A DNA stretch of 64,000 bases from Rhizodiscina lignyota (lineage: Eukaryota), in NCBI GenBank assembly GCA_010015805.1, contig ML978126.1:1860001-1924000 (forward strand). The letters run 5' to 3'. The position numbers were made by a program, and so were the translations under genes. Below the pieces are notes generated by a model. That model had not been told where the DNA came from and did not search any database. It saw only the letters and a list, made by a program, of their open reading frames with translations. Positions 1 through 35,200 of the stretch are shown here, piece after piece; the first letter of the stretch is position 1; each line of letters begins with the position of its first letter.

Positions 1-618
1 CGCTGAGCTACCCCCTGCTCCTGTACTGGTATTTCTAGTGCAGCGAGAATCAAAGTACACAATGTGGCATCTAGAACGTAGGTCTTAAAAATCACTATTC
101 CCGTATGAAGATTGGCTAACCCTCCCACAGTATTACAGGTTGAATTGAAGAAGAATCTCCGACATTCGAAGAAATATCGCACAATTCTCGAAAGGCCCAC
201 AGGGAAGATCTTTCCTTTGCGACGACTGGCGGTGAATGAATCACAACTGGATTTCTGGAACATCCGCTCCATTGCAGTCCCACCGCGCTCTAAAGACAAA
301 GGCAAGCCGGCTGTCGAGAACCTTGATGGTACGAGCGTTGTGCTCGACTTTGCAACCGAGCAGGAACAGACGACCTTCGAGGCCTACTTCAAGCACACTG
401 CTCTCCAGCGTATGAAACAGATCAAACAATTCAACCTCGGTCGAAATGTAGCCCTCTCTCAATCTGACATGCCGTCGCGGCGGGCCAGCTACGTTCCTGC
501 CACCATATATGGCGAGTCAGCCTCAGCCTCAACGATCACGCCAATACCTGAAAGGAAAGAGACTGGCGTTCCGATTTTGAATCCTATTCCAACTTTTCCG
601 TCTTTGCACAACATTTAG
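1..618 (+). CDS. 3' end of a hypothetical protein entering from the window edge, possible PH-like C-terminal domain
   Basis: Open frame from base 2 (AELPPAPVLVFLVQ...) splices across GTAGGT..CTAAC..CAG intron 78-130 into ORF 112..618; 'VVLDFATEQEQTTFEAYF' resembles the last strand and helix of PH-like folds. Confidence 0.6.
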
Positions 619-1805
619 TGCTGACCACATATGGAGCAGAGGTGCGGAAACCTTATTTCACTTGGGTATGCCGCAACCTCCTCCAGGAGAGTGGCATGAT
701 TGTATATAATTATGAAGATACCCAAATGATTATCAACTAAACATTACCGTAGTACCTCAATTGATGAAACATAGTTTGTGACTCAGATTGTTTTTACGGA
801 GCTTGAACAGACTTGGGGTGCGAAGAAGCCAGTTTCTCGTGAGCGTACGAGACATATAATAGGGCCTTATCATTGCTCTGTGTCTTCTATTAAGAAATTA
901 AGCTTTAGCATATTTTCCGGATCCTTTTGTGTAGCTTTGCCTGCCCTTTCTGTTTTCTCGTCTAACTTCACCCCAAGAACCTCTCCTGATGTAAAGAGTA
1001 CGTCGACATATTCCTAATCGCCGCCAGTGGCACCTTGGACACCTACCACTCCTCCGAATCCACTATCATAAGAGGTGCCATACCGGATCAACAATCCATC
1101 CTCGTGGGCTATCATTAAACTCCCTTGCGAGATCGCGCCCAACGTAGAGGAAAATTATGGAAATCGTCAAGAATCTCGGCAACTTATCGTCGTGAATGTT
1201 CTCATGGTAAGTCAAGCGGATGAGGTATATTTGAGGGGCCCATGCCTAGATCGAGGGCTTGATAATTCGAAGCAGATACATATCGAGAGCAAACGGACAT
1301 GTGATGATTAATTGAAGCTGGCCGGAGTTCTGTTACTGATGAAGTCAAAGTAAGCCCATGACCCCCGTAATGCCAAGAACATCAGGCCATGTACCTCTCG
1401 GCCGATACCTCCCGCCAACATGCATCCTTCGTCTAACTCTCTTATCATCGAAGCTATATTTCAAATACATTTACAACCATTGGACCACGAGACAAAGCTC
1501 TCCAAAAGCGTAGTGATTCGCTAAAGCTTTCCACAGAGTAGAAGTCTCGAGCAGCGTTGTGAATATCAACCGTCAGCGGCACTTGGAGTGGCATGAATGC
1601 CAACAAGATCGGTTATATCGTCTGCGGCGGATGGTCCCATTACAAATCTAGGATCCCAATCCTTGGATGGCAAGCTGTACGAGTAAAGTTAACTGCAGAG
1701 CTTCGACGGCCCTCGCCAGGTCTGCCAAATCTACAAGGCCGCCGCTATCACTGTCGACCTTTGATCAAGCAACTACAAACCGCTGGACTGGCAAGGAAAG
1801 CAAAT

Positions 1806-2756
1806 ATGAGCGGCCGAGTTCCTATTGAGCCACAGCGTGTCGACGCACCCCTAACTCAGGCGGCGACATTCCTCGTTCTATCACTCACTGACGCGCCCGA
1901 TGCAGTGAAAACAGTACGCTCAACAATCGCGAGTGTCGACGACCTTGCAAAGAATGTCTCCATTCGCGACCTAGGCGCTTCATTCGCTTGTACTGTTGGT
2001 ATCGGAAGCGATGTATGGGATCGTGTCACTGGTCTCCCTCGACCGGCGGAGCTTCATCCCTTTCCTGAAGTTAAGGGCGCGAAGCATACGGCTGTCTCGA
2101 CGCCTGGTGACTTTCTGTTCCACATCCGCTCAGAGCGTCGTGATTTATGCTTCGAGTTCGAGCGACAGCTATTAGATCTCCTAGGAGATTCGGTCAAGGT
2201 CGTTGATGAGACTGTCGGTTTCCGCTACTTTGACGTTCGCGACCTGCTTGGATTCGTTGATGGCACGGCGAACCCAGTTGGACCTTCTGTGCCTGAATCT
2301 ATTCTAGTTGCCGAAGAGGATACGGCTGCCGCCGGCGGCAGCTATATCGTTATACAAAAATATGTGCACGACCTCAAAGCGTGGCGTGGCCTGTCGACGG
2401 AGCAGCAAGAAGCCATTCTGGGCCGGACGAAGCTGGACAACATTGAGCTTGACGACGTCCCCGAAGGGAAGCAAGCGGCGCATAAACAACTCGCTACGAT
2501 CGAGGATGAGAATGGCGTTGAGCACGACATTCTCCGCGACAACATGCCTTTTGGTTCTCCTGGCTCTGGCGAGTTCGGAACGTACTTTATTGGGTACTCG
2601 CGGCGCCTCTGGGTCATCGAACAGATGCTGCAGCGCATGTTTATCGGAGTGCCTCCTGGGCTACATGATCGCCTGCTCGATTTTTCGACTCCGCTCACCG
2701 GCACGACGTTCTTCGCGCCATCCGCAAGTCTCCTCGCCGGCCTGGATTCTGACTAG
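1806..2756 (+). CDS. Dye-decolorizing (DyP-type) heme peroxidase, bacterial DypB-like, intronless, no signal peptide
   Basis: GFVDGTANP (GxxDG), GGSY..QKYVHDL, IxGRTK, proximal His (AHKQL), distal Arg (ILRDNMPFG), GTYFIGY, DRLLDFS; likely start MSGRVP at 1806. Confidence 0.93.
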   Translation: MSGRVPIEPQRVDAPLTQAATFLVLSLTDAPDAVKTVRSTIASVDDLAKNVSIRDLGASFACTVGIGSDVWDRVTGLPRPAELHPFPEVKGAKHTAVSTPGDFLFHIRSERRDLCFEFERQLLDLLGDSVKVVDETVGFRYFDVRDLLGFVDGTANPVGPSVPESILVAEEDTAAAGGSYIVIQKYVHDLKAWRGLSTEQQEAILGRTKLDNIELDDVPEGKQAAHKQLATIEDENGVEHDILRDNMPFGSPGSGEFGTYFIGYSRRLWVIEQMLQRMFIGVPPGLHDRLLDFSTPLTGTTFFAPSASLLAGLDSD

Positions 2757-3207
2757 TGGGCTCGAGAGTGACAATATACCTGACCCCGATGGATATCGCG
2801 AGGGTGCTGCAAGCACGAGCCTGTCTCGTCAACTGAGGCGAGAGCATCGCTGAAAGCTCAATATTACATCCTTTGGCAAGCGTTTCTTAAGAGTATGCAG
2901 CTTTGATAAATTCAGTCAATCCTATTATTGTTGTGACTGCGCTTCAACAGCTCCATGTATTGTAGCTATGGGTCAAGTTCCTGGCCACTCTCGAAATTGG
3001 TTCATTCATGGTGTCATTAAATGTGCAGATGGGGTTATAGGGAAGTTTGTTGATATACACATCAAGCCGTTAAATCCCAAGTCTGAAGCACGATGAGCCT
3101 TCTCAGTAGAGTCCCTCTATGGGATAAACTCAATTGAGCTATTATTCTATGTCCATTGAAATCAAAGCGGACACTCGTCCCGCCGAAACTCATTGTCTTC
3201 CCCTCGT

Positions 3208-4302
3208 TCAATCATGCTGCATACGACAACTGCCGTCTGTCATCTTTTCCCCGGCTCGGAAGCAATCTAGGCAAAGGCCTCGGCATAAAGCATTAGCCTC
3301 TTTGGCGGCGTCTCGAATAAGCTGTAGGCTTGTGCGATCGTTGGCACACTCAGAATATGCGCACGGGGCCAGATCATTGGCAACAACTGTCACATCCTTT
3401 GCAACTGTTGCGAAAAGGACACAAGTAGCGACTGCGGAGGGAAGCATTTCCGGTGGCCAGAGCTTTTGCTCTTCGAGACATTCCAGCATATGGCGAAGAT
3501 TCCAGTTGCAGAGTTTGCAATCATCATCGTGCCCCCTCATGCTTCCGCCAATGCACCAAGTGAGGGTCTTATTGATCGCTTCAACGATCATCTGTCTTGC
3601 TGTCTGCGCCCGCTGGATCATCATGGCTGTGACACGTGAGAGCACAAAAGCAAGCAAATGGTGAGAATGAACAAACATACTGAGTAGGGTCTTGGGAAGG
3701 AGCGTTTCATGCAATAGCAATTCATCACCGTCTCCGACGGGAGTCATGACCATCAACAGATTGCTGAACTCCAGGAAGTGCCGATGGTCATTTAAGATAT
3801 AAGCGGTGTCCAACAGTATCACTCGGCCTGCTCCCGGTGGCCACTGCAGTCTCGCGTCCTTGAACCACAGTTCAAGGCTCTGGAAGACGCTCCAATAAGC
3901 GTCGTACTTGTCTACTAGAATAGCATAGCTCCGAAGGAGGGCTGGCGATAGGGAGTATTCCGAGACTCGTTTTCCTTGTAGATGTGTGACAGCGCAGAAC
4001 AACTCCAACGCTAGAGGGTCGTCTTCCGGGAGGGGAATCTCTTTCGGATCGTCCCCGCTGAGTCCTTGACCTTCGCTGTACTTGGTTGAGAACATGTTTC
4101 GGAAAACCGGGGACGCAATCGAGAGAATATGAGAGGACACGCGCAGACGTCTGGCTCTCTCCGCTGTTCCGGCGATGAAGATGACATCGCCTTCAGGAGC
4201 AATCTCGAGGATGTTTGTACTCGACATGTTGTGGTCGACTTGGTTTAAGTGAATGCTGGCCATGTCACTGGCGAGCGCAATGATGTTGGCTCTTTCTGAC
4301 AT
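3208..4302 (-). CDS. BTB/POZ-domain protein
   Basis: EIAPEGDVIF..LRVSSHILSIASPVFRNMF..YSEG..IPLPEDDP..LVDKYD; C-terminal GLCLDC..C..H; probable in-frame 54-nt intron 3627-3680; start may be 4227 (MSSTN). Confidence 0.88.
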   Translation of the reverse strand: MSERANIIALASDMASIHLNQVDHNMSSTNILEIAPEGDVIFIAGTAERARRLRVSSHILSIASPVFRNMFSTKYSEGQGLSGDDPKEIPLPEDDPLALELFCAVTHLQGKRVSEYSLSPALLRSYAILVDKYDAYWSVFQSLELWFKDARLQWPPGAGRVILLDTAYILNDHRHFLEFSNLLMVMTPVGDGDELLLHETLLPKTLLSMFVHSHHLLAFVLSRVTAMMIQRAQTARQMIVEAINKTLTWCIGGSMRGHDDDCKLCNWNLRHMLECLEEQKLWPPEMLPSAVATCVLFATVAKDVTVVANDLAPCAYSECANDRTSLQLIRDAAKEANALCRGLCLDCFRAGEKMTDGSCRMQHD

Positions 4303-5039
4303 TTCCCGTCGTTCGCTCGATTGCGTGGCGTTTTGGAGCCTTTATCGAAAGGCTGCTGACTGACAGAAAGGAGATGAAAGAAAGTTCGCGAGTTCTGAAG
4401 AGGGGCGAGAATTTATACGTGTGTGGTTCTGCTCTCGCGCCTGCTAGGCTGCCAGCGTGTTACTCTATTGTGAATACCAGCGCTCAGACCAATGTGAATG
4501 AACCCTAAATCATACCTGGGGCCTGGCTATTGTGCCTTCAACCAACCTGCAGGTTTCCACTCTTGACTTTATGCGTCGCCATACTCTCAGGCCGGCACCG
4601 TGCGGAATCAACGGGTTCGTAGTTGTTGGAAGTCACAAATCTCGCTGTTAGGGTCGTATGGTATATATACGCCTTCTAACGTCTGAACATTAGATGTTCA
4701 GACATTGTTACCTTTTTGGTGGTCTATGCTGCTAGCGCATGAGATTAACACTCGCTGTATCTTGTACCGCTTTGGCGGGTTGCTAAGAGTCTGCACCCAT
4801 ACTGCTCCTGGTGAAGAGAGCTACAAGGTTCACCGTAAATGATTCCTAACTGGCATCTTGGTCACGTATGTGACACCTCTTGGGTCTTAGCTTCATACGC
4901 TATTCTTCTAGTTTTCACGCAAGCAAGAATAGTCCCATATACATTACCCTCGCAACATCAGCTACCATGTGTAGCCTCCACCAAACCTTACTGAGAATGA
5001 AATTTGCTTACGTATTACTGAAAAAGGTATCGCGAAGAT

Positions 5040-5549
5040 ATTTTCAAGGTATTCCAGCACCGAGATTGACCTTTAGTACAAATTCAGTGCTTAGTGCTCT
5101 GAACTGGGCGGCGTCGTTAACCATGTAGGCTGCATCTAGCGCGCAAGAATCATGTCCTCTGAGAGTCGACACTTCGCCTCGCCAGCTTTAAACCAAAATT
5201 CAGTAACAACACGGACGGTGTCGGTACACTGGTATATGTCGACCATAATTGCGAACATGTGGAGCTCCCGAGCGCTCAGCTCCAGCGGCACTTGGTCGGT
5301 TTTTCAGATGTACAATTAGACAGAGAAGTCTTACTGCGGCCTGCTCATCTTCTGGAAGAGGGATGTATTTCGGACTAGCAGAGCTGAGCCCCTGGCCCTC
5401 GCTGAATCCATCTTTCGAGAACATGCTTTGAAATACTGGTGACGTTGTTGAAAGGATATGGGAGGAAACGCGCAAATGGAGGGCTTTTTCGCCAGAGTCG
5501 GAACGAGGAGGTTGACATCGCCATCAGATGCAATTTCGAGAGTCCCCAT
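5040..5549 (-). pseudogene. BTB/POZ pseudogene, paralog of 3208..4302
   Basis: MGTLEIASDGDVNLLV / DSGEKALHLRVSSHILSTTSPVFQSMF..FSEGQGLS..IPLPEDE / ..FAIMVDIYQC..EFWFK / LDAAYMVND can only be joined by changing frame about three times; 3' limit approximate. Confidence 0.8.
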
Positions 5550-6106
5550 GATGACGAGGATGCGGAGCTTTCTCACGACGATGGTTGACAGGAGACCTGA
5601 TGTTTGACGTTGCAAAAGCTCGAGGGTCATGGAAAAGCGGTGACGCCCAAGAACAATAGCTCTTACACCTCACGGTAATCCCGACTATCCCTGAAAAGGC
5701 AGTTATACGTTGTTCGGAGTGTACTTAGCAATAACAAACTGCTTAGAAACTTGTACACCCTGTGATTCGCAGAGGCTACACACTACTGCTGTTCCGTATT
5801 TTGAAAGTTGCCGCCAACTTCGGGTTTCTAGCAATAGTGGAGGCGTGCATGTGACATCGCGTTCATGTCGCGTTTGTCCGTGCACGCGTCTCCTCCTTCG
5901 CGGGGGGTTTCAGGTACGTCAGACGCTGCTCCTTTACCATACCTCTCGCTTTCTTTCGAAGTCTTCTTGTCACCCAATGAAGTATTAGAATTGTCCCATA
6001 TATATAGGTGTCATCCCAAACCGTCCTCCTTTCTGGTATGTCGCATCCACTTGTCGCACAGACTGCTCAATTGCGTGTACTGATTGCGGCAGTCAAACCG
6101 AAAGAT

Positions 6107-7332
6107 ATGGAAGGCGATCCTCCGAATTCGTCGATCAAAGAAATATTTCGCAATGGCAACGTCATCCTCACTCTCGACACTGCGTCTGACGAAAACCGAG
6201 CTCCGATCCGACTACGCGTCTCCCCGCAAGTCTTGAGCACCGGCTCTCTATACTTTCAAAATCTATTCAAAGCGGAATGGAGAGGGAAGCAACTCGAGTC
6301 TGCGACTGCAGATGCTCCACTCGAGATCACGGAACAATTTGAGGATGTCAAAACCGCGTGGATGATGTCGCTTATATGCTCTATCCTCCATCACCGCGCG
6401 GAAGCGGCACCATCTACAAAGAGTCCGGAATCTATCTTGAAGTTTGCTCATGTTGCACAGTATTACCAGTGCACATCTGCAGTTCGTTGGGTTGCGAGTC
6501 CCTGGATCAAGGCCGCCTTGGAGAAATCCGAAGGCCAGCCGGACTCAATGGCAAGATTTGACACATTGTTGGAAGCCAGCTATGTCCTTGACAGCCCAAT
6601 GGATTTCCTCAACGTTTCAAAGGCATGGGCGCTTCACTGGAAGCAGGGCAGCTCTGCGATTCTCTATGCGAAGGGAAATGATGCAGTTGTACCTCTTTTT
6701 GCCTATGGTACGTACAACTGCGCTGAAATATATTGAAGTAGCTGCTTACTTTGACAGTCGATATCGAACAGCAGAGCAAACTTGTCTACAACACCATCTA
6801 TCAGTGTGTCGAAGAGGAAATACGTAATGTTAGACGATTATTAACTCCGTACAACAAAGATGTCATGCACGAAGCACTTGCCTGTATCCTGTCCTACTTT
6901 GAGAAGTACTCCATTTGGCCTTCAGACCGTATGCCAGATAATGTTCAAGATCTCCTGCGCAAGGTTCAGCATACACAGCGGATGTCCTGCCCCGACACGA
7001 GTCTCAATTCGGAGCTGAAGATACTCAACCATTTGACTGACCAGCAGTGGCATGGCTTTAGAAGGTTTGGAATAACGGAGGAGTTGGCACAAAGGGCTAT
7101 AGTCGGCATTTGCATCGACTGCTCTAAGGCTGGGAAACGCATCAATAATAATGACGGTGCCTGCAGGATTTTCCACGATGATAAGGGGTACACTGTCCCC
7201 GAATGGGAACGTCCAGTTCGGAAACGTCCGCGACCGGATCCAGTCGACAATCCCGTCGATGATGCCCTTGAGGATAGCGACAATACTGAAGACGAAATCG
7301 ATGGTGATACGTCTCATATGCTGATTAGTTAG
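6107..7332 (+). CDS. BTB/POZ-domain protein with acidic C-terminal tail
   Basis: GNVIL..LRVSPQVLSTGSLYFQNLF..ICSILHH..VAQYYQC..LEASYVLD; intron 6708-6757 joins ORFs 6008..6736 and 6751..7332 in frame; GICIDC..C..H motif as in the first BTB gene. Confidence 0.85.
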
Positions 7333-7737
7333 ACGTAAACTGAAGAGATCACGAAGGACTTTTAGTTTCGCTGTGGCTGTGGCATAAGCTTCGAATTGGT
7401 TTTAACTAGGGCATTGCGGAATTTCCAGCGGAATTTCCAACCTCCATGTAGACTTTAGTCTCTGATCCAGTATATATCTTTTCATAGCATATGAAACAAC
7501 TCGGTGAGATTTTCAGCAATCCTGCTGGTAGATGCAATTGTATCTTACAATGAAGTAATGGCGGTGAAAAAGATTCGATCTGTTCTGTAAGCCCGGAGCA
7601 GCTCATTATGTTAAGCAGGGGAAGATCAAGCTACCATCTAAGCATAGCAAAATGGCTCGACCCGCGTGTCTTGGTGTCGTAAACGACCATGGCCACATAC
7701 AGGAAGACAACTATTCAGCCTCTGAGGAGGCGAATTC

Positions 7738-8967
7738 TCACAAAGGCACAACCTCTTCCTGCCAATCCCTCACAACCTTCAGCTTCCCCGGCCCCTCCCA
7801 TTCCGCCCTCAGCACCTCCACAAACTGCTCAATGTCGTCAATCAACACCTCATCCGTCGATCCACAGATACACAGGTGCTCTACAATCCCGCTCAATCCC
7901 TTCCACCACCCTCGCGGCGCCGTCAGAGGAGCGTTGTACGGATCGCGTGGCGCGCCGGCCAAGAACTGCGTGGCCCATCGCTTCACCGATGGAGGGCCGA
8001 TGATGTCTTTCCAGGCGTTCCGCCTATATGCATCGGCGTGCGAGGAGAGCTCGACCCATGGCGAGATGAGCAGAGCAGCTTTGAGCCTTTGTCCATTGGG
8101 GAGCTTGACTTCCTGTACGCTCCTGTCAGGATGCGGGTGGAGGATGTGTGCGAGGACGTCAATGGCCACATGACCACCGGCAGAGTCACCTCCAAGCAAG
8201 ATATGCGACGGGGCCAAGCCGAGTGTGGTGAGCACGTAGTTGAGAGACATGGCTGCTTGAGCGAGTTGCCGAGGGTATCTAGCGTATGGGGCCAGGTCGT
8301 AGGAGAGGATTAGAGCGGAGTAGGACCGTGGTTTGGAAGACGATGGGCTGGAATGGCCGTTGAGATAATCCAAGTGCTGGCTGAGAAAATCGAGGTTGGC
8401 GTGAATAAGAGGTCCTTGCCTGAGAGTTAGCGGCAGGGTTTTGACCAGTATCGTGGAAGGGATAGCTCACCGTTATAGCCACCGCCGTGAAAGTACAAGA
8501 GAACTGAAGAGGCTTCCTTATCCCCGATCCAGTGTAGCTTCGTTCCATCATCGAGAGTCTCACTCTTCGGCTTTATCTTGTTGTCATTGCAGAATTTGAG
8601 GTATACTTGGTCGGTGTTCGGCGATAGGAATCTTGATTGTTCAGATCACTGTACACACGTTCAGGGGGAAACTAGCTCACTGCTCCTGAGCACTTGTCAT
8701 GCTCCCTGAAAAGGTACGGAAAGTGCTGTACACGATCCATTTGTAGTATGTTGAAGGCTTGTTCTTCCTGCTCACAAACAATGGGGAAATAATAGAGAAT
8801 AATGCCTTTCCCACTAGAAATTGTCAGTCCAGTCGAATTCGTATTCACTAGATACTCCACAGTACAGCAGAGGACAATAGGAGTTACATACAGACTGCAA
8901 TAAAGAGAGGAAGAAGCCCGAGGCGGCCGAAAACGCCAAGGGACGGCTTGTCTGGCTTTTGACCCAT
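7738..8967 (-). CDS. Alpha/beta hydrolase, HSL-like esterase (Say1/Mug180-like)
   Basis: Multi-exon: MGQKPDKPSLG.. (ATG 8967), LLYFHGGGY oxyanion motif, LLGGDSAGG nucleophile, LLISPWV; C-terminus looks short and the catalytic His is not obvious. Confidence 0.82.
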
Positions 8968-10272
8968 ACTGATACTTGAAGGGATACTTCAGAACGCAGA
9001 GGAAATAAAAATTCGCACAAATTAAAGAATCAACTTCGAAACAGAAGATTCCATATAAAATGCAACAGCTTGCGGAGTCCGATCGTATATAGAGCTCTAT
9101 AGCTAATCAACCTTTCGTGCATTTTCTAGTTTTCTACTAGCCTTTCATTTCGGACGAGAAGCTAGATCATCAGGGATGAAGCACCTGCGGTCTATCCGCA
9201 GATACCACATTAGTGTCGTGATATTGGCATTACTAATGGACTGTAACTAATACAATTCAAGTCTCACAGTCTGGCAACGCCACAGACTGATGATCACGCT
9301 GAACGAAGCAGCAGATAGGTTGACTCTGACATGACTACCTACTTAGTTCAGAGACTTGGCTTCTCCGATGAGGCCCGAAACGTCTTGTCCCGTACCATTG
9401 CAAGGCGTCCCGTAATCGAATCATTCGAATGGTACAAGGTTTCTGGGGCAGTAGAAACTGGCGCCACCTTAAACGAGGTGAAGTAGCGCAATCTGCATGC
9501 CTACAGTCGTTTCGAGCTTGGCTTCCAACTTTTTCCGATTTTCAATTTCCAATCGCTGCCTCTGCGCCGGTCTTTGAACAGGACAGGACGATTGCTGAGA
9601 TACGCCAAGCTGTGTAAAAGCTACCCCAGGCCCAGGAACGTGTCTAGTCAAATAAGTCTCCAGTTTTCGACTTGAAATTGGAGTAGGCGCTGAGGTTCCG
9701 AGAATCAAAAAAATCGAAAACAGTTGGAAGCCACAGCTCGAAACGCCTGGAGAACGGACGGATAATAATCGCGTCGCAAGATGCTGGGGAAGGAGGCGTG
9801 AATAACCCTCGACCTCGGCCAACTGCTGTTAATCAGGTAACTTTGCTCCTCTCCAACGATGTGCCGCGGGACTAAAGAACAGACCTTTATTTGCAATTGT
9901 TGAAGACATAGCGAGCTTCATCATAATCAGTTTCGCGCAAAATTCCCTCTTTTGAACGCCTTTGCATCACTCTTTCTGATTTGCGTCCCCCTTTCGGATA
10001 TACAATTTACATAATTAGTCACGAGACTCCTTGTTCAGCTTATTATTGTGGGTACTTCGCATGAGACTTTGGGGCTGTTTCCTAACCGAGGCAAGCATTA
10101 AAGTGATTTTTAACAAAGCAGAAGCTTATAGAAGCACTCGAAGGGCACTTGGCCATTGCTTTCGTGCACCTTTGCCTTAGTTCCTCCTAGGGCTCCCTCT
10201 TTAGTATTTTTCGGTTCAGGACCTAAGGTTATTTTTAAGCTTCTCTGATATCCCTGCGACGTTAAATCCAGC

Positions 10273-12096: not shown

Positions 12097-14866
12097 CTAT
12101 CTACTCGAATCCGACATATCGGATGCAGGGGGCGGAATCTCAATTACTGGGGGCAGTTCGACAGGCACACCAGACCCTGGTAGCTCAAAATAGGGTATCT
12201 GGTACGGTTGTTGAGACATCATGTCCAGATTTTTCTCCTCAGCCTCAGAAACCGTTCTCTGTTTTCTTGTTGATCTGAAAACTTTCCTCTGAGATGCTGA
12301 AGGGAATATGCCATGCTTGAAGAACTTTGGCATTCGGCCTTTGAGTCGAGTCCAATGATATTTGAAGGCTTTTCTTGGCCGTATGACGAACAGTCGGTTC
12401 GTGGAACTGAAGGTATTTTAGCAGCCAAACAGCCAGAGTGAGAGATGGAATTACCTGGCCTCGCTTTCCGCAATAGATTTTTGTTCAAGATGAAACAATT
12501 CAGGGTTCCCAGATGGTACACGACTGAAGTCATTTGAAGCAGTTGTCTCCATTGACATTCTCGCTGGTATTACCACGTCATCGGAGGTTATGCCTGTATT
12601 AGAAGGTATTCCAGCCAGCTCATTACTCAGATTTACGTCATCATTAGATGCTCGTCTTTCATTGATGGCTTGGGATTCAAGACGTGGCCAGTTTTCGGGA
12701 AGATCATCTTCATCGGACAATACTTCGGTAACAGAAGGTGCCTTGCCATGTGACTTGACGTCGTTTCGCAGAGCTGCTTGCTCGCTGTGTGCTGCTCTAT
12801 TTTCCAATGACACTCCATCTGAAGATACTGTCTGATCTGTAGTAGCTCCAGCGAGGGGTATATCGTCGAATCGCTTTGGCAGCGGTACAGACTCCGAGCT
12901 ATTGGATATAGGTAGATGGAATTTCAACGGCCAGCCTCGAATCTGAGTCTTCTTTGGGGAAGTATGCGTTGGGCCACCTGGGGTATCCGGAGCTACAGAA
13001 TAGGCTTCTGCTAAATCAAATTTGTACACGTCCTCGAGCCTCCCATTTGCAGATTTACGACGACAAAGTTCCGGTGTTCGGTCGAGCCAGGCCCTTACGT
13101 CTTCTTCTCGGGCAATGTTGACAGTGTCGGCTCCAAGTTGGTTTTGGATTGAGCGTAGGGTAGCTGCAATTGGTACCATGAGGTGCTCTGCGAAAGGGCC
13201 CACAGCAACAAAATGGCCATGCGTGTTGCCCGATGAGTCAATGACCCACGACCCAGAATCACCGACTTGAAGAGGCACATCTGATAGGCGTATTAGCACT
13301 CTGGACCGAACATAGATAATTTACCATGACAAACCTACCCAGGTCATGCACGGAGTGTACTTCGATCAAATGATAACCACCTGGAGGCATGAAGAAGGAA
13401 GTCTCGTGCGAGAGGACCCCATGGTGTATGCCGCTGCGCCCAGCGAGTACCACAACCGAAGTGAAAGGTGCTGAGGTGGATAAGTCTTGGATACTATTGG
13501 CTTCCACGTCTCTTAATTGTGTCAGAGCGTGGCCAAGCTCCTGAACAATAGCGAGGTTCTCCATTTGGGGTGCAAGTTCCACCAGTGCCCAGTCATGATT
13601 GGGTTCAACGGTATCTGCATCATATGAGCTTGCTACAACTTTCCCGCGAACTGAAAGAGGTAGATGGATTTCGCCAGGCTTGATGAAATCGGATTCTTGA
13701 CCGGTTTGTTCAAAGGAATCAGGTATCAAGTCGTCCCTCCAGTCGACATCAGGCATATCTTCAGTATCCTCAGTACCCTGCATATTCTCCTTCCGGCGAA
13801 GCGCGCGCTCACGTCGACGCCGACGATTTTCCGCATCGCTCGTTACGTGTTCTGAAGTATCAACAGTATTGGGTTTGTTGCTCGATGGGGAATTTCCATC
13901 AGGCGTGGGCGTTTGTTCGAGTTCGTTCATCTCGAAGGTCTCGTCGACTTGGTCTGGGTGACTAGAATCCACGGCGACAAGCCCCGGTTTGTCCACGTGT
14001 CTCAACTCGGACCTCTGGAGAAAATGACCGCAAGTCAAAGCGAACATTTGCACAGCCGAGCCTGTCTTGACGGTGATGATGCCACCAATTGTGGCGAACA
14101 CTTCTCTCTGTCCGGGCACTTGAAGTATGCTACCGCGATACGTCCTCTTGGAAGAGCTTGAGGACAAAAGCACTGCCAGGTCGGCACTGCACACCTTAAG
14201 TCTCCCTTCACGGTCGTCGATAACCGTCTCAAGAGTCGGGCGTCTTCCTTCGGGATCTTTACAATGCTCTTTATACCAGTTCTCCCTGACAATATGTCGC
14301 ACCCTTGATGTAACTGATTTGTCACAGAATATGACAACGTAAGGTTTGGCCGTGGACTCATCTTCGCCGAGGCTTATGAGTTTGAAAAGGACCGGGCCGG
14401 GCGCGGAGGGGCCTTGGTAGAGAGTCTCTACTATCCTGCTGTTAAGCAATTGAACCAGATCTGAAAACTGCCTTGACACTTCAGGTGCTATCTCTTTGTT
14501 AGGAAAGCGAGCCAGCTTTTTCTGTGCGAGAACATCCCCTTTCCGCGGGGGGGCCAATTTTCCGCCGCTTAGCTTTATGGGTCCACTGCCTTCTGGCGTT
14601 TCTTCTTCGCTTTGTGACGGTGGCTCTAACCTTGAAGTTGCTTCGTCAGTTGGCCTTGCGCTAATTGGAGATCTGTCGTGCACGTAGTTTTTGCGGCTCT
14701 CATTTGCAAATCTTCGCCTCCTAGACAGAAGCGATTTGAACTTCAGCCTCGGCCTACCAACTCTTGTCAACACTGCCCAGAAACCCCTTCTTATCGCAGG
14801 TGAGAATTCAGAGGCATAGTATTCTTCATCAACATCAGTCTGGAGCTTCTCATCTAGGTGATCCAT
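12097..14866 (-). CDS. Cytosolic trypsin-fold (PA clan) serine protease-domain protein with long disordered regions
   Basis: ATIGGII, ALTCGH (His), DWALVEL (Asp), GDSGSWV (Ser), HGHFVA; introns 13281-13338 and 12407-12454 join ORFs 13259..14878, 12451..13299 and 12097..12333 in frame; no signal peptide. Confidence 0.8.
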
Positions 14867-15281
14867 CGGAAACCTCAAATGTCAGACAAAGAGTCAATCT
14901 TGAAATAGTCGGAAAGGGAAATGGACGAAGGGGAGAAATGGGGCACAAGCCCGATCCCAAAAAGAAAGCCCGAGCGGCACGGCTCGAATTTCTTGACCCA
15001 CTATGGGTAAGGCTGGGCTGTGCATTGAGCGTGCTGGATTGGTTGTCCTAGGTGTAAGGCAACGGGGCCCTCTGCCCAGCCTCGTCTCAGCCTGATGCAA
15101 AATGGCGACTTGAAATCGAATGAGAAGAAGCCAGGCCCAATAGCTATCTATCAGCATTCGTCCGCGGACTTCTCTTTCAGCGCTTCGCTGGTGAGAACAT
15201 AAAAATACGCTCTTGGAAAGCCGGAAAACAACACATGCTCCCCGTCTGTGGTAATTTTTGGGCGGATGGCAAGTATTGCAG

Positions 15282-16445
15282 ATGGCGTCAATCACTGAGA
15301 ATGACCTCAAGGAAATATGCCAGATCCTCTGGTCGTGGGATTTTTGCATTGGATGCTTGCAGAAAACAGTGTGCCAGGTCAAGGCGTGTCCGAACGAACG
15401 AATGCGACGACTCTCGCGATATTTCGATTACGGCAGAATTATATTCGACGTGTACGCAGCCGAAACGCCTCCAGCAAAATTGAGGAAGCTTCGCAACTTG
15501 GTACTCAAAGCAATAGGCTTCATTCGATCCAGTCCGTCGAGTATTCGTGCTGAATTTTTGCAAAGGTTGGCGAATTCTAGAGAAGGCGCAGACGAAGACG
15601 TGGAAGAGCTGGATAGAGCACTGATGATGGCTATTAAGCTCATGTTCATGACGAATTGCGGTCATGACAATCAAAAAATGGAGGTCCTGGAGTCCGGATT
15701 GTTCATGAGGTCGTGGAGAGGGGAATTCGGTCTTGATAATTATATCGTTGATTCCTTCCCCAAAACCGACCATCCAAGTCTTAATGAGAAGAATTCCAAT
15801 AAGGCCGATATTATCAAGGCGGCCCTCCAAGCCAAGAAGTTAAAGAAGCATGCTAATCTAAGCTTCTCCCCAACGGACGATATTCGGAACCACTTGAGGC
15901 TGGACCATCAAACAGGAGTTGTACAGATCTTCCATTATACAAGCTTTCTGAAAGAACAGCTTCGGATCACACAGCATATGCGGTCCGAAACGGAAGCACA
16001 TATTGTCGAATACATGAAGGCTGGCGCTCTGCCACGACAGCTTGTCCTGGAGGTCCTTGATTCTATTCAGAAGGTTCTCTTTCCTATTAACGATGACCAA
16101 TCGTACGCGCTGCTTGTATCCATGACAAGCTCGAAGGGAGGTTCTTTCGATCCAGATTGTATTCGGTTCGAGTCCGAAGAGTTCCGCAGCGCAGAAGAGA
16201 GCGATGTCGCATATTACTATTTCGGGGCGCGCCTTATGGAGCTATATCAGGAGTCAGAGAATCCGAGGCCGCGTGGATTAGTTGCGGAGTGGCTGGAGCG
16301 TAGGAGTGGAGCGCGATATGCCATGCTAGCGACTCTTATCGGGGTTTTCATTGCCATCCTTCTGGGGCTTGCGGGACTGGTGGTCTCCTCGTATCAGACA
16401 TATATTGCGTACCAGCAGTGGAAGCATGCAATATCCAAGTCATAA
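15282..16445 (+). CDS. Uncharacterised fungal protein with a C-terminal transmembrane anchor (PTDDIRNHL..VQIFH motif)
   Basis: Intronless ~387-aa ORF; hydrophobic C-terminal helix YAMLATLIGVFIAILLGLAGLVVSSYQTYIAY; divergent from the protease gene. Confidence 0.85.
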   Translation: MASITENDLKEICQILWSWDFCIGCLQKTVCQVKACPNERMRRLSRYFDYGRIIFDVYAAETPPAKLRKLRNLVLKAIGFIRSSPSSIRAEFLQRLANSREGADEDVEELDRALMMAIKLMFMTNCGHDNQKMEVLESGLFMRSWRGEFGLDNYIVDSFPKTDHPSLNEKNSNKADIIKAALQAKKLKKHANLSFSPTDDIRNHLRLDHQTGVVQIFHYTSFLKEQLRITQHMRSETEAHIVEYMKAGALPRQLVLEVLDSIQKVLFPINDDQSYALLVSMTSSKGGSFDPDCIRFESEEFRSAEESDVAYYYFGARLMELYQESENPRPRGLVAEWLERRSGARYAMLATLIGVFIAILLGLAGLVVSSYQTYIAYQQWKHAISKS

Positions 16446-22603: not shown

Positions 22604-25600
22604 TCATTTGGGCGGAGTGCTTGTGATAGTTGGAGGAGTAAGAGCCGGTGGACTTCTGCCAGCTAGTTGGCCAGTCGTCGCGGGAGCCGATGCGCGCTTT
22701 GAGGCCTTCTGGATCTCGGTCTTCTTCTTGAGGGACTTGAGCCGAGCCTTTGTGCCATCCAGAACTGTAATATTTAGTATGTCACTTCAGGGGGGAGATA
22801 AGGGATACATACTGCTTTGAATAGATGCGCGATCTTCTCCTTCCAGTCCATTGATCACGTCGTCGTCTGCGCGGTTGCTGCGGCCAGGGCCACTTGACTT
22901 GCGCGGGTTCACGTCCTCGTCGGTGTCGAGTACTGCCTCGAGCATGAGAATAGCCGTCCTATACGCGATCTCGCAGCCCTCGAGATCAATGTTGACGAGC
23001 TCGTTAACGGCTGCAGCGCGGCTCATCTCACAAGCTCTCTCGTACATGAGCTTCTCGGCAGTGACCCCGGTCGTCAATTTGATATCATCCGCAGAGGTGC
23101 CAATGCTCGTACCAGAATGTGACACCGAGTGGTTGCTCGGATGACTCGGGTGATCAATCGGAAGCTGCTTCTGCGCATCAACAAGCTTGCGGCCGACGAA
23201 TTCGGACTTGTCATAGCACTCATTAAAGCGATTCCTACTCCATTGGACGACATTGTTCATGCGCGCGCCGATAGTCGCTAGATTCTTGCTATTCGACCTC
23301 GGAGACTCGCTGATGACTTCGCCGCGGTTCTTGTGGCCCCACCAGCTGCCCGCAATGTCCATGACCTTGGCAAGAGTCGCCAGAGCTTTGACATATAGAA
23401 CGAGAGCTTCCTCGGAGATTACGATTATAGCGTCGACGGTCAGGTCGTCGTCGTCCTCAGCTTCTGCTTCACTAGCGCGTTTGGCTCCTATACCCATGAG
23501 GCCGCCGTCATTTGAAGGTGTCGCAGGAAGAAGCTGCTTGTATTTGACTTCCGCAAACCCATAGATAACATCGCTGCGGGTTGCAAGTTCCTCAGCAAGC
23601 ATAACTACCTTGCTGTCCTCATCTTTTGGATCCGCTGGCTTAGTCGTGTCGCCAATCATGAGCATGCTGCTTTGCGCCGTAGGATAAGTCGGAAACGCGC
23701 TGTAGCCCTGTGGAGGCGAGAACCCCTTGCCGCCGCTTGGGGGTGAGAATCCCATTCCAAACAAACGGAAATTGGCCATATTTAGCGCCTTGGAAATCGC
23801 AGAAGTCGCAGAGCCAGGATTCGGGCCGTACCTTCGCTCATAAGATGCGTTGCGCGAATGTGTTTGCTCTGGGCGGTGCTTGCCTGTAGCAATCTGAATT
23901 GCACGGGAAGGCGTTACGGTTGCGCCTGTCGTCGAGTTAGGAGCTCCTTGAGTAGTCGCCCTGCGGACCATTGCTCCCTGATTCTGCGGTGAGAGCGGAC
24001 GGTCTCGAAGATGGCCACCACGTAATTGAGGGCTATGAGCAAGCTCATCTGCGAGCGCATTTACCTCGACTGACTTCTTCTCCACTATAATATAATCTCT
24101 TTCAAAAGCGACGTCCTGTGCAGCTCGTTCTCTGGCTTCGCGCAAAGCTCTTTCGTCAACTCTCTGCGGAACTCGCTCGCGCTCAAAGTGCTCTTTAAGA
24201 TACGACGAACTCGGAGATGGAGTGTTGCGGCTATTGCGTCTCTCGATTGCCATTGCAGCCGCAACTGGCGCCTTATCGTGAACAGGTCTTGGCGGGGCCG
24301 TGGCGTGGCCCACAAGGGAAGGTCTGCGGCCTTGCTGAACAGGTCCAGGTATCGGGTAGTCAGGCGGAGGTGTTGCAATTTGTGCTCGCTCTGGACGTGG
24401 AGACCTTTGTGAAGGAGTCCTGGATGGTGGTGTACCTTGCGGCTTAATTGGTCTCTTTTCCATTGCTTCGGCGACGGATACTGGCCGCTCGCGTAGCGCG
24501 GGGGTGGCATTCCTCTCATCTCTCACGTCTTCCTGAACGTTCATCGCGGGCATTTTCTGCATTCTCTTGCTTGCGCCAGAACCATGCATATCAGCTTCGA
24601 ATGGCCGATCCTCGTCTACAAGACCCGGAATTTCTTCTCGAACGACAGGATCCGAGAAAAAGGGCTCAAAGCCGATTCTTTCCGTAGGTGACTTCTTCAA
24701 TAGAGCTCGGATCAAGGCCTTCATACCACTGCTGATGATTGTACCTTCCGGGAACTTGATCTTGTCTTCCTGCTTCTCGATCCTGCGCAATAACTCGACA
24801 TGATTGTTCGCCCGGAAAGGAGGTTTGCCGACCATCATCTCATGCAGCACAGTTCCCACTGACCACAGGTCCGCCTTGGCATCATATTTCTCGTACCGAA
24901 GAATTTCCGGAGCCATATAGAGCGGTGAGCCACATAGAGTCTCGGCCAATGACGTCTGCGGAAGGACGCGAGCAAATCCAAAATCCGCGACCTTCAGCAT
25001 AGGAAGAGACTCAACCCCAGCGGCCGGTATCAGGGAATTTTCGGCAACTTGAAGCGGCATGAGTTCAGGCTTATGCTTTACGTACCAGTGCGGCGATGGG
25101 ACGAGAAGAAGATTCTGAGGCTTGATGTCGCGGTGCACATAGCTCTTTGACCGGAGAAATTCCAGCGCACTTGCAATCTGTTTCAGGAAATGCCTTGCGA
25201 CGACTTCGTTCAGGCCGCCGACGGGAGGATTCGGGTACTTCCTCATCATATCTCTTGTCACCTCGTGATTCGCCAGCGTGCTCCGACCCTTGATGAACTG
25301 TGACAAGTCTCCCATCTCGCAAAACTCCATGACGATATGCATATGCTGGTCCGTCTCTTGGCAATCGATAAGCGCGACGATGTGGGGATGCTGCAGGCTC
25401 TTCAGGATGTTGATCTCGGCATATAAATTCTCGCGCAGCTTCTTGTTGAGCTTGTACAGCTGTACGGACTTGATTGCGACGAGGGAGCGCTTTTTCTACA
25501 CAATACCACGAGGGTCAGTACCTGCCAAGGCTGATGTAGAGACGAATACAGGGAACAAGGCTGCACGCCCCATCATCAAAGTTTCCATCGCGGAACATCG

Positions 25601-31753: not shown

Positions 31754-32287
31754 AGTTGTGATCTCGAAGCTGCTCTATTGCTTCTGCCTTCACGATCGTG
31801 ATAACCTCATGCCAGGAGCTCGTGTCGGCTAAAATTCGGCGAAAGCCTGGCTTCCGGCAAAACTAAATCCCCGAATTGAAACATTTGAAGACGAGCAGCG
31901 CCACAATGTAAATCGCTTGACTCATCGAGCCTGCAGCCAGGCGAATTTGTGAGCAAGAGTGCGCAGCTGCGCCTTAGCGCTGAAATCTCATTCTGAGTCA
32001 CTTTTTCTAATTGTTGGCCCGAAAGAGCTTCTCATTTGCGAGACATAAATCGCGGCCTGAGGCCCTGTCACTTGCCACCATCAAACACTTTTGCTCACGG
32101 AAGCGTAAGGAAAACACTAGTTCATTCATTGCAACCGCTCGTCAACGTACTGGCAACTTCTGAGGGTTTTCAGTCCCTTGAACGTTCTTTCATATCTTAC
32201 ACTCTGCAACCTTAGGCTCCCGCATTGCCCGCATTGGAAAATCTATCTGATCCGCCCAATCTGCGTGGCCTTGAATATCACGCAATC

Positions 32288-35200
32288 ATGGAAGCGGCAG
32301 CGACGACGGCGAACCAAAATTCACCCCAGGCACAAGGTTCTCCTCGAGCGTCACATAGACATCGTAGGAGACCTCAAAGGGCTGGTCATGCCCAACAGAC
32401 TTCAGACGGAGTACCATTAGAGATTCCTCCAGAGTCTCAGCACTCCAGAGGAAATCAAAGACCTAGACATGGCGGCCGAGCACCACGAGGAGATGCACGT
32501 GCTAATGTAGCTCGAATATCCGCTCAAGCTGGATCTACAGGACCTTCAAGCGCAGAGACTTCCGGAAATGAGTCTCGTCCACGAGGTAGAGGTTCACAAT
32601 CTGGAAGGCCTCCACGGAGAGGCGGCCGAGGTGGTCGAGCCACTCAGGTTGCACCATTGCGAATGGTGAATGGCAGGCAGTTTGGCGGCCAACTCACTCA
32701 ACCCGATGATGATGCCATCTCGACTTCAGCTGCGAGCGTGACCTCGCCACTGCAAGCTGATGCTCCTGAATTTCGTCCAGGTCAGACTCATACTGCCCGC
32801 CCACCAAGAGTCCAACAACCACGACCACAGAGGCGGAGAGGTTCAAGAAGCACTGCAAAAGACCTACCCACCCGTATCCATGAGGATATCGACAACAAGC
32901 AATACGAGTGTGCAATATGCACCAACGAGATCCAGCGGAACTCTCGGGTCTGGTCATGCAAAACGTGCTGGACCGTTTTCCACCTGTCATGCGTCAAGAA
33001 GTGGGCAACTGCCAAGCGAGAAGAGCAACGGCCTCAGAACGGTCAGGATGACTCAAGTCAACATTGGAGATGTCCTGGATGTAATCTACCCAAGGAGGTA
33101 ATCCCAAAATCATTCACCTGTTGGTGCGAGAAAGAAACGGATCCGCGCTCACTCCCGGGCCTCCCTCCATTTTCTTGTGGTCAGACATGTTCTCGAGAGC
33201 ATGAGATCCCAAAGAAGTGTCCCCATCCTTGTCAAGAGCTTTGTCACGCAGGTCCTTGTCCACCATGTCCAAACATGGGACCAAGCCAGATGTGCTTTTG
33301 TGGTAGGGAGACCGTCACGAAGAGATGCATAGACACAGATTATGAGAATGGCTGGACTTGTGGAGCAGTGTGTGGAGAGCTCATGCCCTGTGGAGAACAC
33401 TACTGCACGCGATCATGCCACGAGGGCCTTTGTGGTGCGTGTGAAGAGATGGTTGACGTCAAATGCTATTGTGGCAAGGTTGAGAGACAAATGTGGTGCT
33501 GTGACAGACAGGAAGAGAAGACGAGTAGGCTGGAGCTAGCACATGGACAGGATGCAGACGGCGAGGAATCCTGGATCGGATCGTTTGATTGCGGTCAAAT
33601 TTGCGGGCGACCTTACGATTGCGGCTCCCACATCTGCGAAAAGACTTGCCATCCCCTCGATGCAGCCACACCACACTGTCCGAAATCTCCTGACATTGTC
33701 ACTCATTGCCCTTGTGGCAAGACTCTGCTCAGCGACATCTCGAACAGCGCTCGGACCAGCTGCGAAGACCGCGTTCCGAACTGCGACAAGCCGTGCCTGA
33801 AGCTGCTCGCATGTGGACATGAATGCCAGCAAATATGCCACGCAGGTGACTGCTTGCCTTGCATGCAGGTGGTCACGATTCACTGTCGCTGCGGACGAAC
33901 AGCATCTCCTTCAATCTGCCACCAAGGCGTGGAGGAGCCACCTCAGTGCGCTAGGGTATGTCGAGCTACACTTAATTGCGGTCGCCATCAGTGCGATGAA
34001 CGCTGCTGCAGCGGAGAGAAGAAGGCATCGGAGAGGCTCTCAAAGAAAAAGCCACGAGCCTTGAATGCGGCTCAACGACCGTCGAACGAGGACTTTGAAG
34101 CAGAACATATCTGTACACGAGTCTGTGGCCGATCGCTCAAGTGCGGCAACCATGAGTGCCAGGAGCTGTGCCACAAAGGTCCCTGCGGAAGCTGCCGTGA
34201 AGCGATCTTCGACGACATTTCCTGCAATTGTGGCCGCACAGTCCTTCAGTCACCGCTCCCTTGTGGAACGAAGCCTCCTCCGTGCCGCTATGAATGTGAG
34301 CGACCAAAGGCCTGCGGACATCCTCAAGTAGCGCACAACTGCCACTTAGGCGACGAGTCTTGTCCCAAATGCCCCTTCCTAACCACCAAGTCATGCCTCT
34401 GCGGAAAGCATCAGATGAAGAACCAGCCCTGCTGGCTCACCGAAGTTCGATGCGGCGAAGTGTGTGGAGAGCGCCTGAAGTCCTGTCGCACACACAACTG
34501 TCGAAAGCCCTGCCATCGCCCAGGAGACTGCGAAGACGCAACCAGCCACTGCCAACAGGAATGCGGCAAAGAAAAGTCCTGTGGGCATCCTGATTCCGCG
34601 CCCTGCCACGCACCACGCCCTTGCAAAGAAGACAAGCCCTGTGCACACAAGATCTTCATCACCTGTAAATGCCAGCGCATCAAGAAAGAAGCGCCCTGCA
34701 ACACAACGCGCCACACGCGGGGCAATCTGGACAGGAGTCTCGACTGCGACGACGAGTGCGCCCGTCTCGAGCGTAACAGGCGCCTTGCGCTGGCCCTGAA
34801 CATCGATCCAGAGACTCACAAAGACGACCATATCCCCTACTCCGCCGAGACCCTCAACATGTTCCTGAACAACGTCCAATGGGCGCAAGCCCAAGAGAAG
34901 GAAATGCGTCTCCTGGCCGCCGACCCAGGAACTAAACGACTGCGCTTCAAGCCCATGGCGTCACACCAGCGTGCCTTTATTCACTCACTCGCCGAAGACT
35001 TCGGCTTCGACTCGGAGAGTATGGACCCCGAGCCGCACCGGCACGTCGCCATCTTCAAAACCCCGCGGTTTGTCATGGCGCCGATGAAGACTTTGGCTGA
35101 ATGCGCAAGGATAAGGCATAGTCAGCGACTCGCGAGCGCGGCTGCGGCCGCGGAGAATGCGGCAGTGAAGGTGAAGAAGAGTAATGTCGAGGCGGAGCCG

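Follow-up and report, generated by a model that had tools for sequence, protein, structure and literature searches.

Do two divergently transcribed genes of Rhizodiscina lignyota, one encoding a protease and the other a tail-anchored membrane protein, belong together, and if so, in what kind of system? They lie at 12097-16445 of the window, a stretch of 64,000 nucleotides (nt) to whose numbering all coordinates refer. The original prediction, made from the letters of this stretch, had described them as a head-to-head pair with a shared promoter of about 415 bp, and had proposed a protease-activated immune or allorecognition module. Comparison with homologous loci established that the pair is conserved and co-inherited. 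As judged from their arrangement in these loci, the two genes very likely work together. We tentatively read the pair as a regulated-proteolysis module that would act on the cytosolic side of a membrane and in which the tail-anchored protein may be the substrate.

Structure of the gene pair

Gene models confirmed the head-to-head arrangement, with 415 bp between the two start codons. The features of the pair are as follows.

12097-14866, minus strand: protease gene, 887 residues, three exons and two introns
14866..13339, minus strand: protease exon 1, encoding residues 1-509 plus one base
13338..13281, minus strand: protease intron 1, 58 nt, GTAGGT...CAG (GT..AG), phase 1, just upstream of the GDSGS codons
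13280..12455, minus strand: protease exon 2, encoding the second barrel with Ser518 and His532, then a disordered tail
12454..12407, minus strand: protease intron 2, 48 nt, GTAATT...CAG, phase 2, with the junction ...AESEA/SSTNRLF found in the database protein P0099
12406..12100, minus strand: protease exon 3, encoding a basic, then proline-rich disordered C-terminal tail; stop codon at 12097-12099
14867..15281: shared intergenic region, 415 bp from ATG to ATG, presumed bidirectional promoter
15282..16445, plus strand: tail-anchored protein gene, single exon, 387 residues (protein P0001)

The spliced translation of the protease gene was identical, letter for letter, to P0099, an 887-residue hypothetical protein of R. 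lignyota, a Dothideomycete. A single sequencing run contained the stretch, as one identical contig, and is probably its DNA source; no RNA run was listed for it. In most linked protease loci, the open reading frame (ORF) was broken at profile position ~417-425, which is the position of intron 1. Since the intron before the GDSGS codons keeps the same profile position across distant fungi, the structure of the protease gene is old.

Conservation of the gene pair

Linkage was surveyed on metagenome contigs, from which alignment A1 (membrane-protein family) retrieved 127 confirmed stretches, 80 of which were kept. These loci were searched by tblastn with 150 proteins of the protease family and 98 of the membrane-protein family, and were grouped into 55 clusters by a DNA identity of at least 90% between their membrane-protein genes. 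The original prediction hinged on homologues of the two genes staying linked, and the divergent arrangement was indeed kept: in 29 of the 33 informative clusters, as in the window, the next gene upstream, on the other strand, was a protease homologue. The four other clusters had no protease despite at least 1500 bp of upstream sequence, and a further 22 had too little upstream sequence. When only the clusters with at least 1500 bp upstream were considered, 26 out of 30 were linked. The gap between the two genes, taken from the first ATG of each ORF, ranged from 177 to 738 bp, with a median of 388 bp. Since the only other protease copies in these loci were tandem extras in L013-L015, the background density of protease genes is low.

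No protease was detected by hidden Markov model (HMM) search in the four exception loci. In two of them the membrane-protein gene was broken, by a frameshift and an in-frame stop in L032 (9857-11207), and by two in-frame stops, together with a missing N-terminus, in L053 (4212-4871); from these lesions, both are probably pseudogenes.

Distances between membrane proteins and distances between their linked proteases were correlated (Mantel r 0.87 for 27 pairs, with none of 2000 permutations reaching this value), after removal of the three clusters whose protease meets the contig end (L027, L040, L076). This correlation points to co-inheritance, not to contact. Mean pairwise identity was 42% for the membrane protein versus 27% for the protease. 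A further hint of linkage came from the closest homologues of the R. lignyota proteins, P0004 (membrane protein) and P0100 (protease), each of which lies on a 35916-bp ENA contig. Fusion proteins joining the two families were not found among the 150 protease and 98 membrane-protein sequences. There was no third conserved neighbour, as flanks differed between linked loci; the flanking genes included the housekeeping genes for Nuo51, Stn1, COX15, a class II tRNA synthetase, and SAC3/GANP.

A sequence element in the shared promoter

The motif CWCAGCC was enriched between the two genes, where at least one copy was present in 23 of the 27 intergenic regions, often two or three and in both orientations. 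Its density was 3.80 per kb in the intergenic regions versus 0.35 per kb in the rest of the same loci, and it occurred in 17.8% of random 400-bp windows. Taken separately, CTCAGCC was present in 16 and CACAGCC in 15 of the 27 regions, versus a maximum of 10 regions for any 7-mer in 200 shuffled sets. In addition, a CCAAT-box-like 8-mer, ATGATTGG, was found in 8 of the 27 intergenic regions. The window holds two copies of the enriched motif.

15016-15022: CWCAGCC copy, GGCTGTG on the plus strand
15086-15092: CWCAGCC copy, CTCAGCC

The two genes are probably co-regulated, to judge from these shared motifs. A short common intergenic region with an enriched motif would explain the adjacency through shared cis-regulation alone, the two proteins being members of one pathway (e.g., a stress or developmental regulon) that do not touch each other. 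However, a single arrangement was retained across classes while all flanks changed, and the membrane-protein gene had decayed in two of the four loci without a protease, both of which suggest dependence rather than mere co-expression. We consider co-regulation without mutual contact to be improbable.

Catalytic residues and relatives of the protease

P0099 was found to carry the intact His/Asp/Ser triad that had been claimed for it, within the motifs TCGH (residues 278-281), DWAL (425-428), and GDSGS (516-520).

14026-14024, minus strand: codon of His281, exon 1, first beta-barrel
13594-13592, minus strand: codon of Asp425, exon 1, first beta-barrel
13257-13255, minus strand: codon of the nucleophile Ser518, exon 2, second barrel

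The protein has no hydrophobic segment (maximum 19-residue Kyte-Doolittle mean of 1.49), so that neither a signal peptide, already reported as absent in the original prediction, nor a transmembrane (TM) helix is indicated. No Pfam family matched P0099 at E ≤ 1. A HMMER search of 1.84 billion cluster representatives returned 481 relatives at E ≤ 0.001, 163 of them at ≤ 1e-10, with two conserved blocks at query residues ~110-290 and ~400-580.

In alignment A2, His281 and Asp425 were each present in all 71 relatives (71/71), and position 518 was occupied by Ser in 46, Cys in 16, a gap in 8, and Leu in 1. The triad was intact in 25 of the 27 linked proteases (20 with Ser, 5 with Cys), the two others showing gaps that result from crude ORF stitching; the Cys nucleophile was observed in the linked loci L003, L009, L013, L016, and L050. 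Because Cys replaces Ser in 16 of the 71 family members and in 5 of the 27 linked proteases, the family is seen, at the level of its residues, to switch between serine and cysteine chemistry. Such a swap at the nucleophile is expected of active enzymes of the PA clan. As far as residues can tell, the evidence establishes that the linked protease is catalytically competent.

Fourteen residues past the nucleophile, His532 was conserved in 58 of the 64 sequences covering that column. A histidine at this spacing lines the S1 pocket in 3C-like and Glu-specific PA proteases; by this analogy, His532 is only a hint of Gln/Glu specificity. Weak Trypsin_2 matches were obtained for 5 of the 71 family members. 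Peptidase_S64 (PF08192) matched neither P0099, nor its three exon translations, nor any of 55 relatives, and was also absent among the first 25 of the 57 Pfam families matched by the 71 relatives.

Two side observations concern the protease genes. A linear motif, [DE]SG[YFW] (consensus DSGYASxxSSP), was present in 119 of the 150 family members versus 7 of 150 shuffled sequences, mostly some 200 residues N-terminal to the catalytic His, and 44 members have it after the core as well; we take it to resemble a DSGxxS-type phosphodegron. P0099 has only a degenerate acidic version, DEEYYASEFSP, at residues 13-23 (window ~14830-14798, minus strand). Moreover, in L013-L015 (one cluster, at about 470-9450), two to three tandem protease genes were located upstream of one membrane-protein gene, and in L013 the protease copy nearest the membrane-protein gene was split into several ORF pieces and may be decaying.

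Predicted fold of the protease

The AlphaFold2 model of P0099 was confident at residues 110-290 and 405-580, with a core pLDDT of about 90. Residues 1-110, an insert of about 110 residues between His and Asp (290-400), and residues 590-887 were modelled as disordered or with low confidence. The model showed an N-terminal domain (~124-230) resembling the ATP-binding domain (ABD) of rice NAL1, followed by two beta-barrels. The best VIA structural match was NAL1 (7y77_A; Z 15.5, root-mean-square deviation (rmsd) 5.7, 271 residues aligned), followed by a second NAL1 entry (8pn2_A; Z 15.4, 286 aligned). Among the best 50 of the 104 matches, the NAL1 entries alone covered the N-terminal domain (model residues 124-580); ordinary PA proteases came next, at Z ≤ 13.6, and covered only residues 236-568. 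The NAL1 alignment had a sequence identity of 15% and a high rmsd (5.7-6.2 Å), which indicates that domain placement differs between NAL1 and the model. The 104 matches are PDB representatives at Z ≥ 8, and nearly all of the best 50 belong to the PA clan (alpha-lytic, HtrA/Deg, V8, and viral proteases); they include DegS (2qf0_A, Z 12.2; 3gcn_A, Z 11.8). P0099 is thus modelled as a PA-clan double-barrel protease of the chymotrypsin fold with an N-terminal accessory domain.

A profile of 71 family members retrieved from the PDB no NAL1 chain at E ≤ 1 and no protease at all; at the sequence level, the fungal family appears, on this search, separate from NAL1. The Pfam families NAL1_N and Nal1_C (PF25608, PF25819) were found on 13-19% of the members of distant Atlas neighbour clusters, which is a lead only.

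Fusion of the protease to DNA-binding domains

A Pfam scan covered 55 of the 150 protease relatives, with long ones preferred, so that domain frequencies are biased. Domains found C-terminal to the protease included C2H2 fingers (P0126), Myb (P0129, P0148, P0169), Fungal_trans_2 (P0108), GATA_AreA (P0199), and a weak bZIP (P0160), as well as DUF7896 (P0124, P0143, P0146, P0166), DUF6594 (P0125), and a transglutaminase/Rad4 domain (P0198). Among the linked loci, one 498-residue ORF of L034 carried the Ser half of the protease together with a C2H2 finger and a Myb domain, and ORFs of L037 and L039 with the Ser half also carried Myb. Because single ORFs join both parts in these three loci, the DNA-binding fusions are not mere annotation artefacts. 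The family is, on these domain matches, repeatedly coupled to DNA-binding modules, in parallel to the substrates of NAL1 and to those of the fungal proteases Ssy5 and SltB, which are transcription factors (PMC4557415).

These fusions bear on a second explanation, in which the tail-anchored protein would anchor or regulate the protease instead of being its substrate. It would hold the protease, and in some lineages its DNA-binding tail, at the membrane, and proteolysis in cis or on third-party substrates would release something else, e.g., the protease's own C-terminal tail. The three linked proteases with C2H2 and/or Myb in the Ser-half ORF fit this explanation, as do the many family members with DNA-binding domains C-terminal to the protease, the approximately 300 disordered residues after the core of P0099, and the [DE]SG[YFW] motif in the tails that flank the core on one side or both; all of the linkage evidence fits it equally well. 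However, Pfam detected no DNA-binding domain in P0099 or in most linked proteases, and autoprocessing is hypothetical. Moreover, the whole cytosolic domain of the membrane protein is conserved, at the higher identity given above, beyond what a simple docking site would need. An anchoring role without cleavage of the anchor is, in our view, a somewhat unlikely explanation.

The tail-anchored membrane protein

As the original prediction had stated for this partner of about 387 residues, a single hydrophobic segment was found near the C-terminus of P0001: the only Kyte-Doolittle segment at or above 1.6 spans residues 342-375 of 387, and a helix was modelled at 345-381. The same lone C-terminal segment was observed in 57 of the 73 full-length relatives. 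With no signal peptide and a single C-terminal TM segment, P0001 is by prediction a tail-anchored protein. Its helical domain was confidently modelled (pLDDT 89.3, pTM 0.84 for the whole model). Two features could be placed on the DNA.

15345-15389, plus strand: four-Cys motif C-x2-C-x5-C-x4-C-P (C22, C25, C31, C36) at the N-terminus of the membrane protein
16317-16400, plus strand: TM helix, about residues 346-373

Mean column identity in the family was 38% (alignment A1). In the TM helix, T351, G354, V355, A358, L361, and G362 were invariant, forming a G-x3-A-x3-G pattern, and the protein also has a conserved juxtamembrane stretch, NPRPRG...ERRSGARY, and a short aromatic C-terminal tail. Invariant polar residues were observed at H204, E225, R252, E257, and D290.

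P0001 had no Pfam match at E ≤ 10 and no Foldseek neighbour at E ≤ 0.001. Several candidate relationships were rejected. A winged-helix-like piece of about 70 residues (61-152) scored Z 6.9-8.1 (best VIA), which is within the noise of the tool for helical models; a TFIIB/Brf2/cyclin-like fold, present in low-ranking Foldseek rows, gave Z ≤ 3.7 upon VIA re-alignment. A likeness to DUF247/DUF6601 (Atlas TM-score 0.37) was unsupported by Pfam scans of 42 relatives and is a lead only, and DUF6594, which is fused to one protease homologue, gave an hhalign probability of 0.1 as a relative of the membrane protein.

The 98 homologues of the membrane protein were all from Pezizomycotina where named, and included the genera Fusarium, Xylaria, Hypoxylon, Podospora, Exophiala, Cladophialophora, Periconia, Tothia, Xylogone, Icmadophila, Psora, Trichoglossum, and Cirrosporium. 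Classes were looked up for three taxa (Dothideomycetes, Geoglossomycetes, and Xylobotryomycetes); with the classes of the other genera, the pair would span at least eight named classes. A paralogue, P0023 (395 residues, 41% identity), was found elsewhere in the genome of R. lignyota itself.

The pair as a candidate immune or allorecognition system

The third explanation, close to the original prediction, is a regulated cell-death, immune, or allorecognition module. Here the protease would switch on the membrane protein as an executioner; once the cytosolic domain had been cut off, for instance, the TM helices could oligomerise and harm the membrane. This would be an analogue of HET-Q2/HET-Q1 and other protease/gasdermin pairs. 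The invariant small residues G354, A358, and G362 of the TM helix would suit such a role, as glycine-zipper patterns favour helix oligomers. The protein P0151 has its protease domain N-terminal to NACHT (NPHP3_N) and WD40 domains, and named homologues occur in only some genera of Pezizomycotina, within a limited search sensitivity. The tight two-gene clustering also recalls protease/gasdermin and NOD-like receptor (NLR)/effector pairs, as described in the available text of PMC9815663. Two fungal NLR surveys, one of them PMC9815663, list S8 and CHAT proteases in the text available, but no trypsin-like N-terminal domain.

Single loci had an immune-type gene nearby: in L035 (1815-5679, minus strand), an NLR-like NACHT-WD40 gene is convergent to the membrane-protein gene, and in L061 (6926-8326) a HET-domain gene lies about 2.4 kb downstream of it. 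NLR-like and HET-domain genes are common in fungi, and each of these single cases could be due to chance.

Several results stand against this explanation. In a small sample of five comparisons of closely related contigs, which came from metagenomes and not from a population, the pair was no more divergent than its flanks, so that the expected excess polymorphism was not observed. Divergence of the pair was 0.0-0.2% between L010 and L011 (flanks 0.12% and 4.0%) and 8.5-9.4% between L037 and L041 (flank 16.2%); between L014 and L015 it was 0.79% for the TM gene and 3.61% for the protease (flanks 3.03% and 1.76%). The membrane-protein gene was the least divergent part in the comparisons, save for the all-identical L016/L017. 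Moreover, the order and orientation of the pair were kept across many classes, next to neighbours that vary and are often housekeeping genes (Nuo51, COX15, tRNA synthetase, SAC3; ATG1 in the window). No signature of a gasdermin, HeLo, or other pore-former was found in P0001 or among the 25 families listed for 42 relatives. The NACHT fusion of P0151 is notable in view of the two NLR surveys but rare, as it was seen in only 1 of the 55 relatives scanned.

The surroundings in the window did not bear out the fast-evolving region, with a BTB expansion and pseudogenes, that had been described around the pair. Two sub-threshold BTB/POZ matches were all that surfaced, and the other genes of the window were ordinary: an FMN dehydrogenase, an SMP-30/gluconolactonase, an MFS transporter, and an ATG1 kinase, which are the neighbours of the pair, and a lipase, NF-X1, a histidine kinase, HSP20, and a P450.

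3211-4341, minus strand: sub-threshold BTB/POZ match (E 0.0022, 18.6 bits versus a cut-off of 20.5)
6008-6733, plus strand: sub-threshold BTB/POZ match (E 0.23)
22790-25495, minus strand: ATG1-type autophagy kinase with MIT domains
32216-35869, plus strand: NF-X1/R3H zinc-finger protein
45907-49103, minus strand: hybrid histidine kinase (HisKA, HATPase_c, response regulator)

What stood of the original prediction is thus the two-gene unit of a protease and a non-gasdermin membrane partner, given the linkage and the lack of a gasdermin signature; its immune or allorecognition label was not supported by these results. No result shows the pair to be an immune or self-recognition system, and we regard protease-driven cell death as quite unlikely. 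A bolder form of it would make the pair a Pezizomycotina-wide switch, in which a NAL1-like cage protease, deployed also as a NACHT-WD40 effector, cleaves a zinc-binding tail-anchored protein whose G-x3-A-x3-G helix then oligomerises as a non-gasdermin executioner or channel; the probability of this form would be low.

Proposed mechanism

In the regulated-proteolysis module that we tentatively favour, a cytosolic NAL1-like Ser(/Cys) endoprotease and its tail-anchored partner would act together at the cytosolic face of an organelle membrane. The helical domain of the partner, of about 340 residues and putatively zinc-binding, would face the cytosol. The protease would cut the neighbouring anchored protein, whose strongly conserved juxtamembrane linker is a plausible site, and a soluble fragment would be set free to carry a signal away from the membrane. 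What we infer here is that the two proteins touch, which of them is the substrate, where it is cut, at which membrane this happens, and what signal follows. By analogy, this logic would match that of Ssy5/Stp1, SltB/SltA, DegS/RseA, and NAL1 acting on transcription regulators.

Several points weigh against a cut of this kind. The unlinked membrane-protein genes in L043 and L064 look intact, which implies that the partner is not always needed in cis, and a Mantel correlation such as that reported above is also expected for any two genes that follow the species tree. In addition, no domain for DNA binding or signalling could be recognised in the membrane protein. Above all, conservation within the membrane protein peaks in the TM helix and the short luminal tail, which suggests that the helix does more than anchor. 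A role within the membrane would account for this no less well than the release of a soluble fragment, and this conservation is the main observation that the proposed cleavage explains poorly. A complex prediction for protease residues 108-588 and membrane-protein residues 1-346 gave a score of 0.00; it was run without alignments or controls and is not evidence either way.

Significance and comparison with known systems

Dedicated pairs of protease and partner genes are recurring irreversible switches, as in gasdermin activation, the release of latent transcription factors, and anti-sigma cleavage. The present pair is among the most tightly conserved divergent gene pairs documented here, has a candidate cis-element, and offers a specific hypothesis, namely Ser518-dependent processing of the neighbouring tail-anchored protein. 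It also ties the plant yield gene NAL1, by structure, to a large family of fungal proteases in which fusions to DNA-binding domains recur. If the pair does act as a signalling or death switch, it would represent a new branch of fungal regulated proteolysis.

Rice NAL1 is the closest known protein by structure. It combines an ATP-binding domain with a serine-protease domain in a hexameric cage that is required for activity, and degrades transcription regulators, according to the available text of PMC12012508. Like NAL1 (7y77, 8pn2), the fungal protease is non-secreted, has a His-Asp-Ser triad, and possesses an N-terminal domain that matched structurally; the known substrates of NAL1 are transcription regulators, and DNA-binding domains are frequent fusion partners in the fungal family. 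Unlike NAL1, the fungal protease has the insert of about 110 residues between His and Asp and disordered tails of about 300 residues, and the available text of PMC12012508 describes no tail-anchored partner for NAL1.

Among fungal enzymes, Ssy5 and SltB, two serine proteases of the cytosol with a chymotrypsin fold, process latent transcription factors, and the Slt pathway is restricted to Pezizomycotina, according to the portion of PMC4557415 that was available. P0099 resembles Ssy5 (S64), which acts on Stp1/Stp2, and Aspergillus SltB, which acts on SltA, in being a fungal cytosolic protease of the chymotrypsin fold. Unlike Ssy5 and SltB, it lacks a Peptidase_S64 match and a pseudokinase domain, and its partner, a tail-anchored protein from a family without a name, is no zinc-finger factor. 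The same portion of PMC4557415 does not describe sltA and sltB as neighbours.

In Podospora, the subtilisin-like protease HET-Q cleaves a gasdermin. The pair resembles HET-Q2/HET-Q1 and other protease/gasdermin pairs, as far as PMC9815663 was available, in that two clustered genes encode a protease and a partner directed to the membrane. It differs in that its protease belongs to the PA clan, not to the subtilisin (S8) or CHAT families, and in that its partner is not a gasdermin; unlike HET-Q loci, it is widely conserved, is not idiomorphic in behaviour, and showed no excess polymorphism in the five comparisons.

In bacteria, the trypsin-fold protease DegS acts on the single-pass membrane protein RseA, releasing a regulator. 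DegS differs in its periplasmic location, its PDZ domain, which is absent here, and its unrelated sequence, and RseA is unrelated to the membrane-protein family. No paper on the pair or on either protein was found among open-licence PMC and bioRxiv articles. A protease with a dedicated neighbour is a known logic; no description of the two protein families, their pairing, the fungal NAL1-like architecture, or the promoter element was found among these articles.

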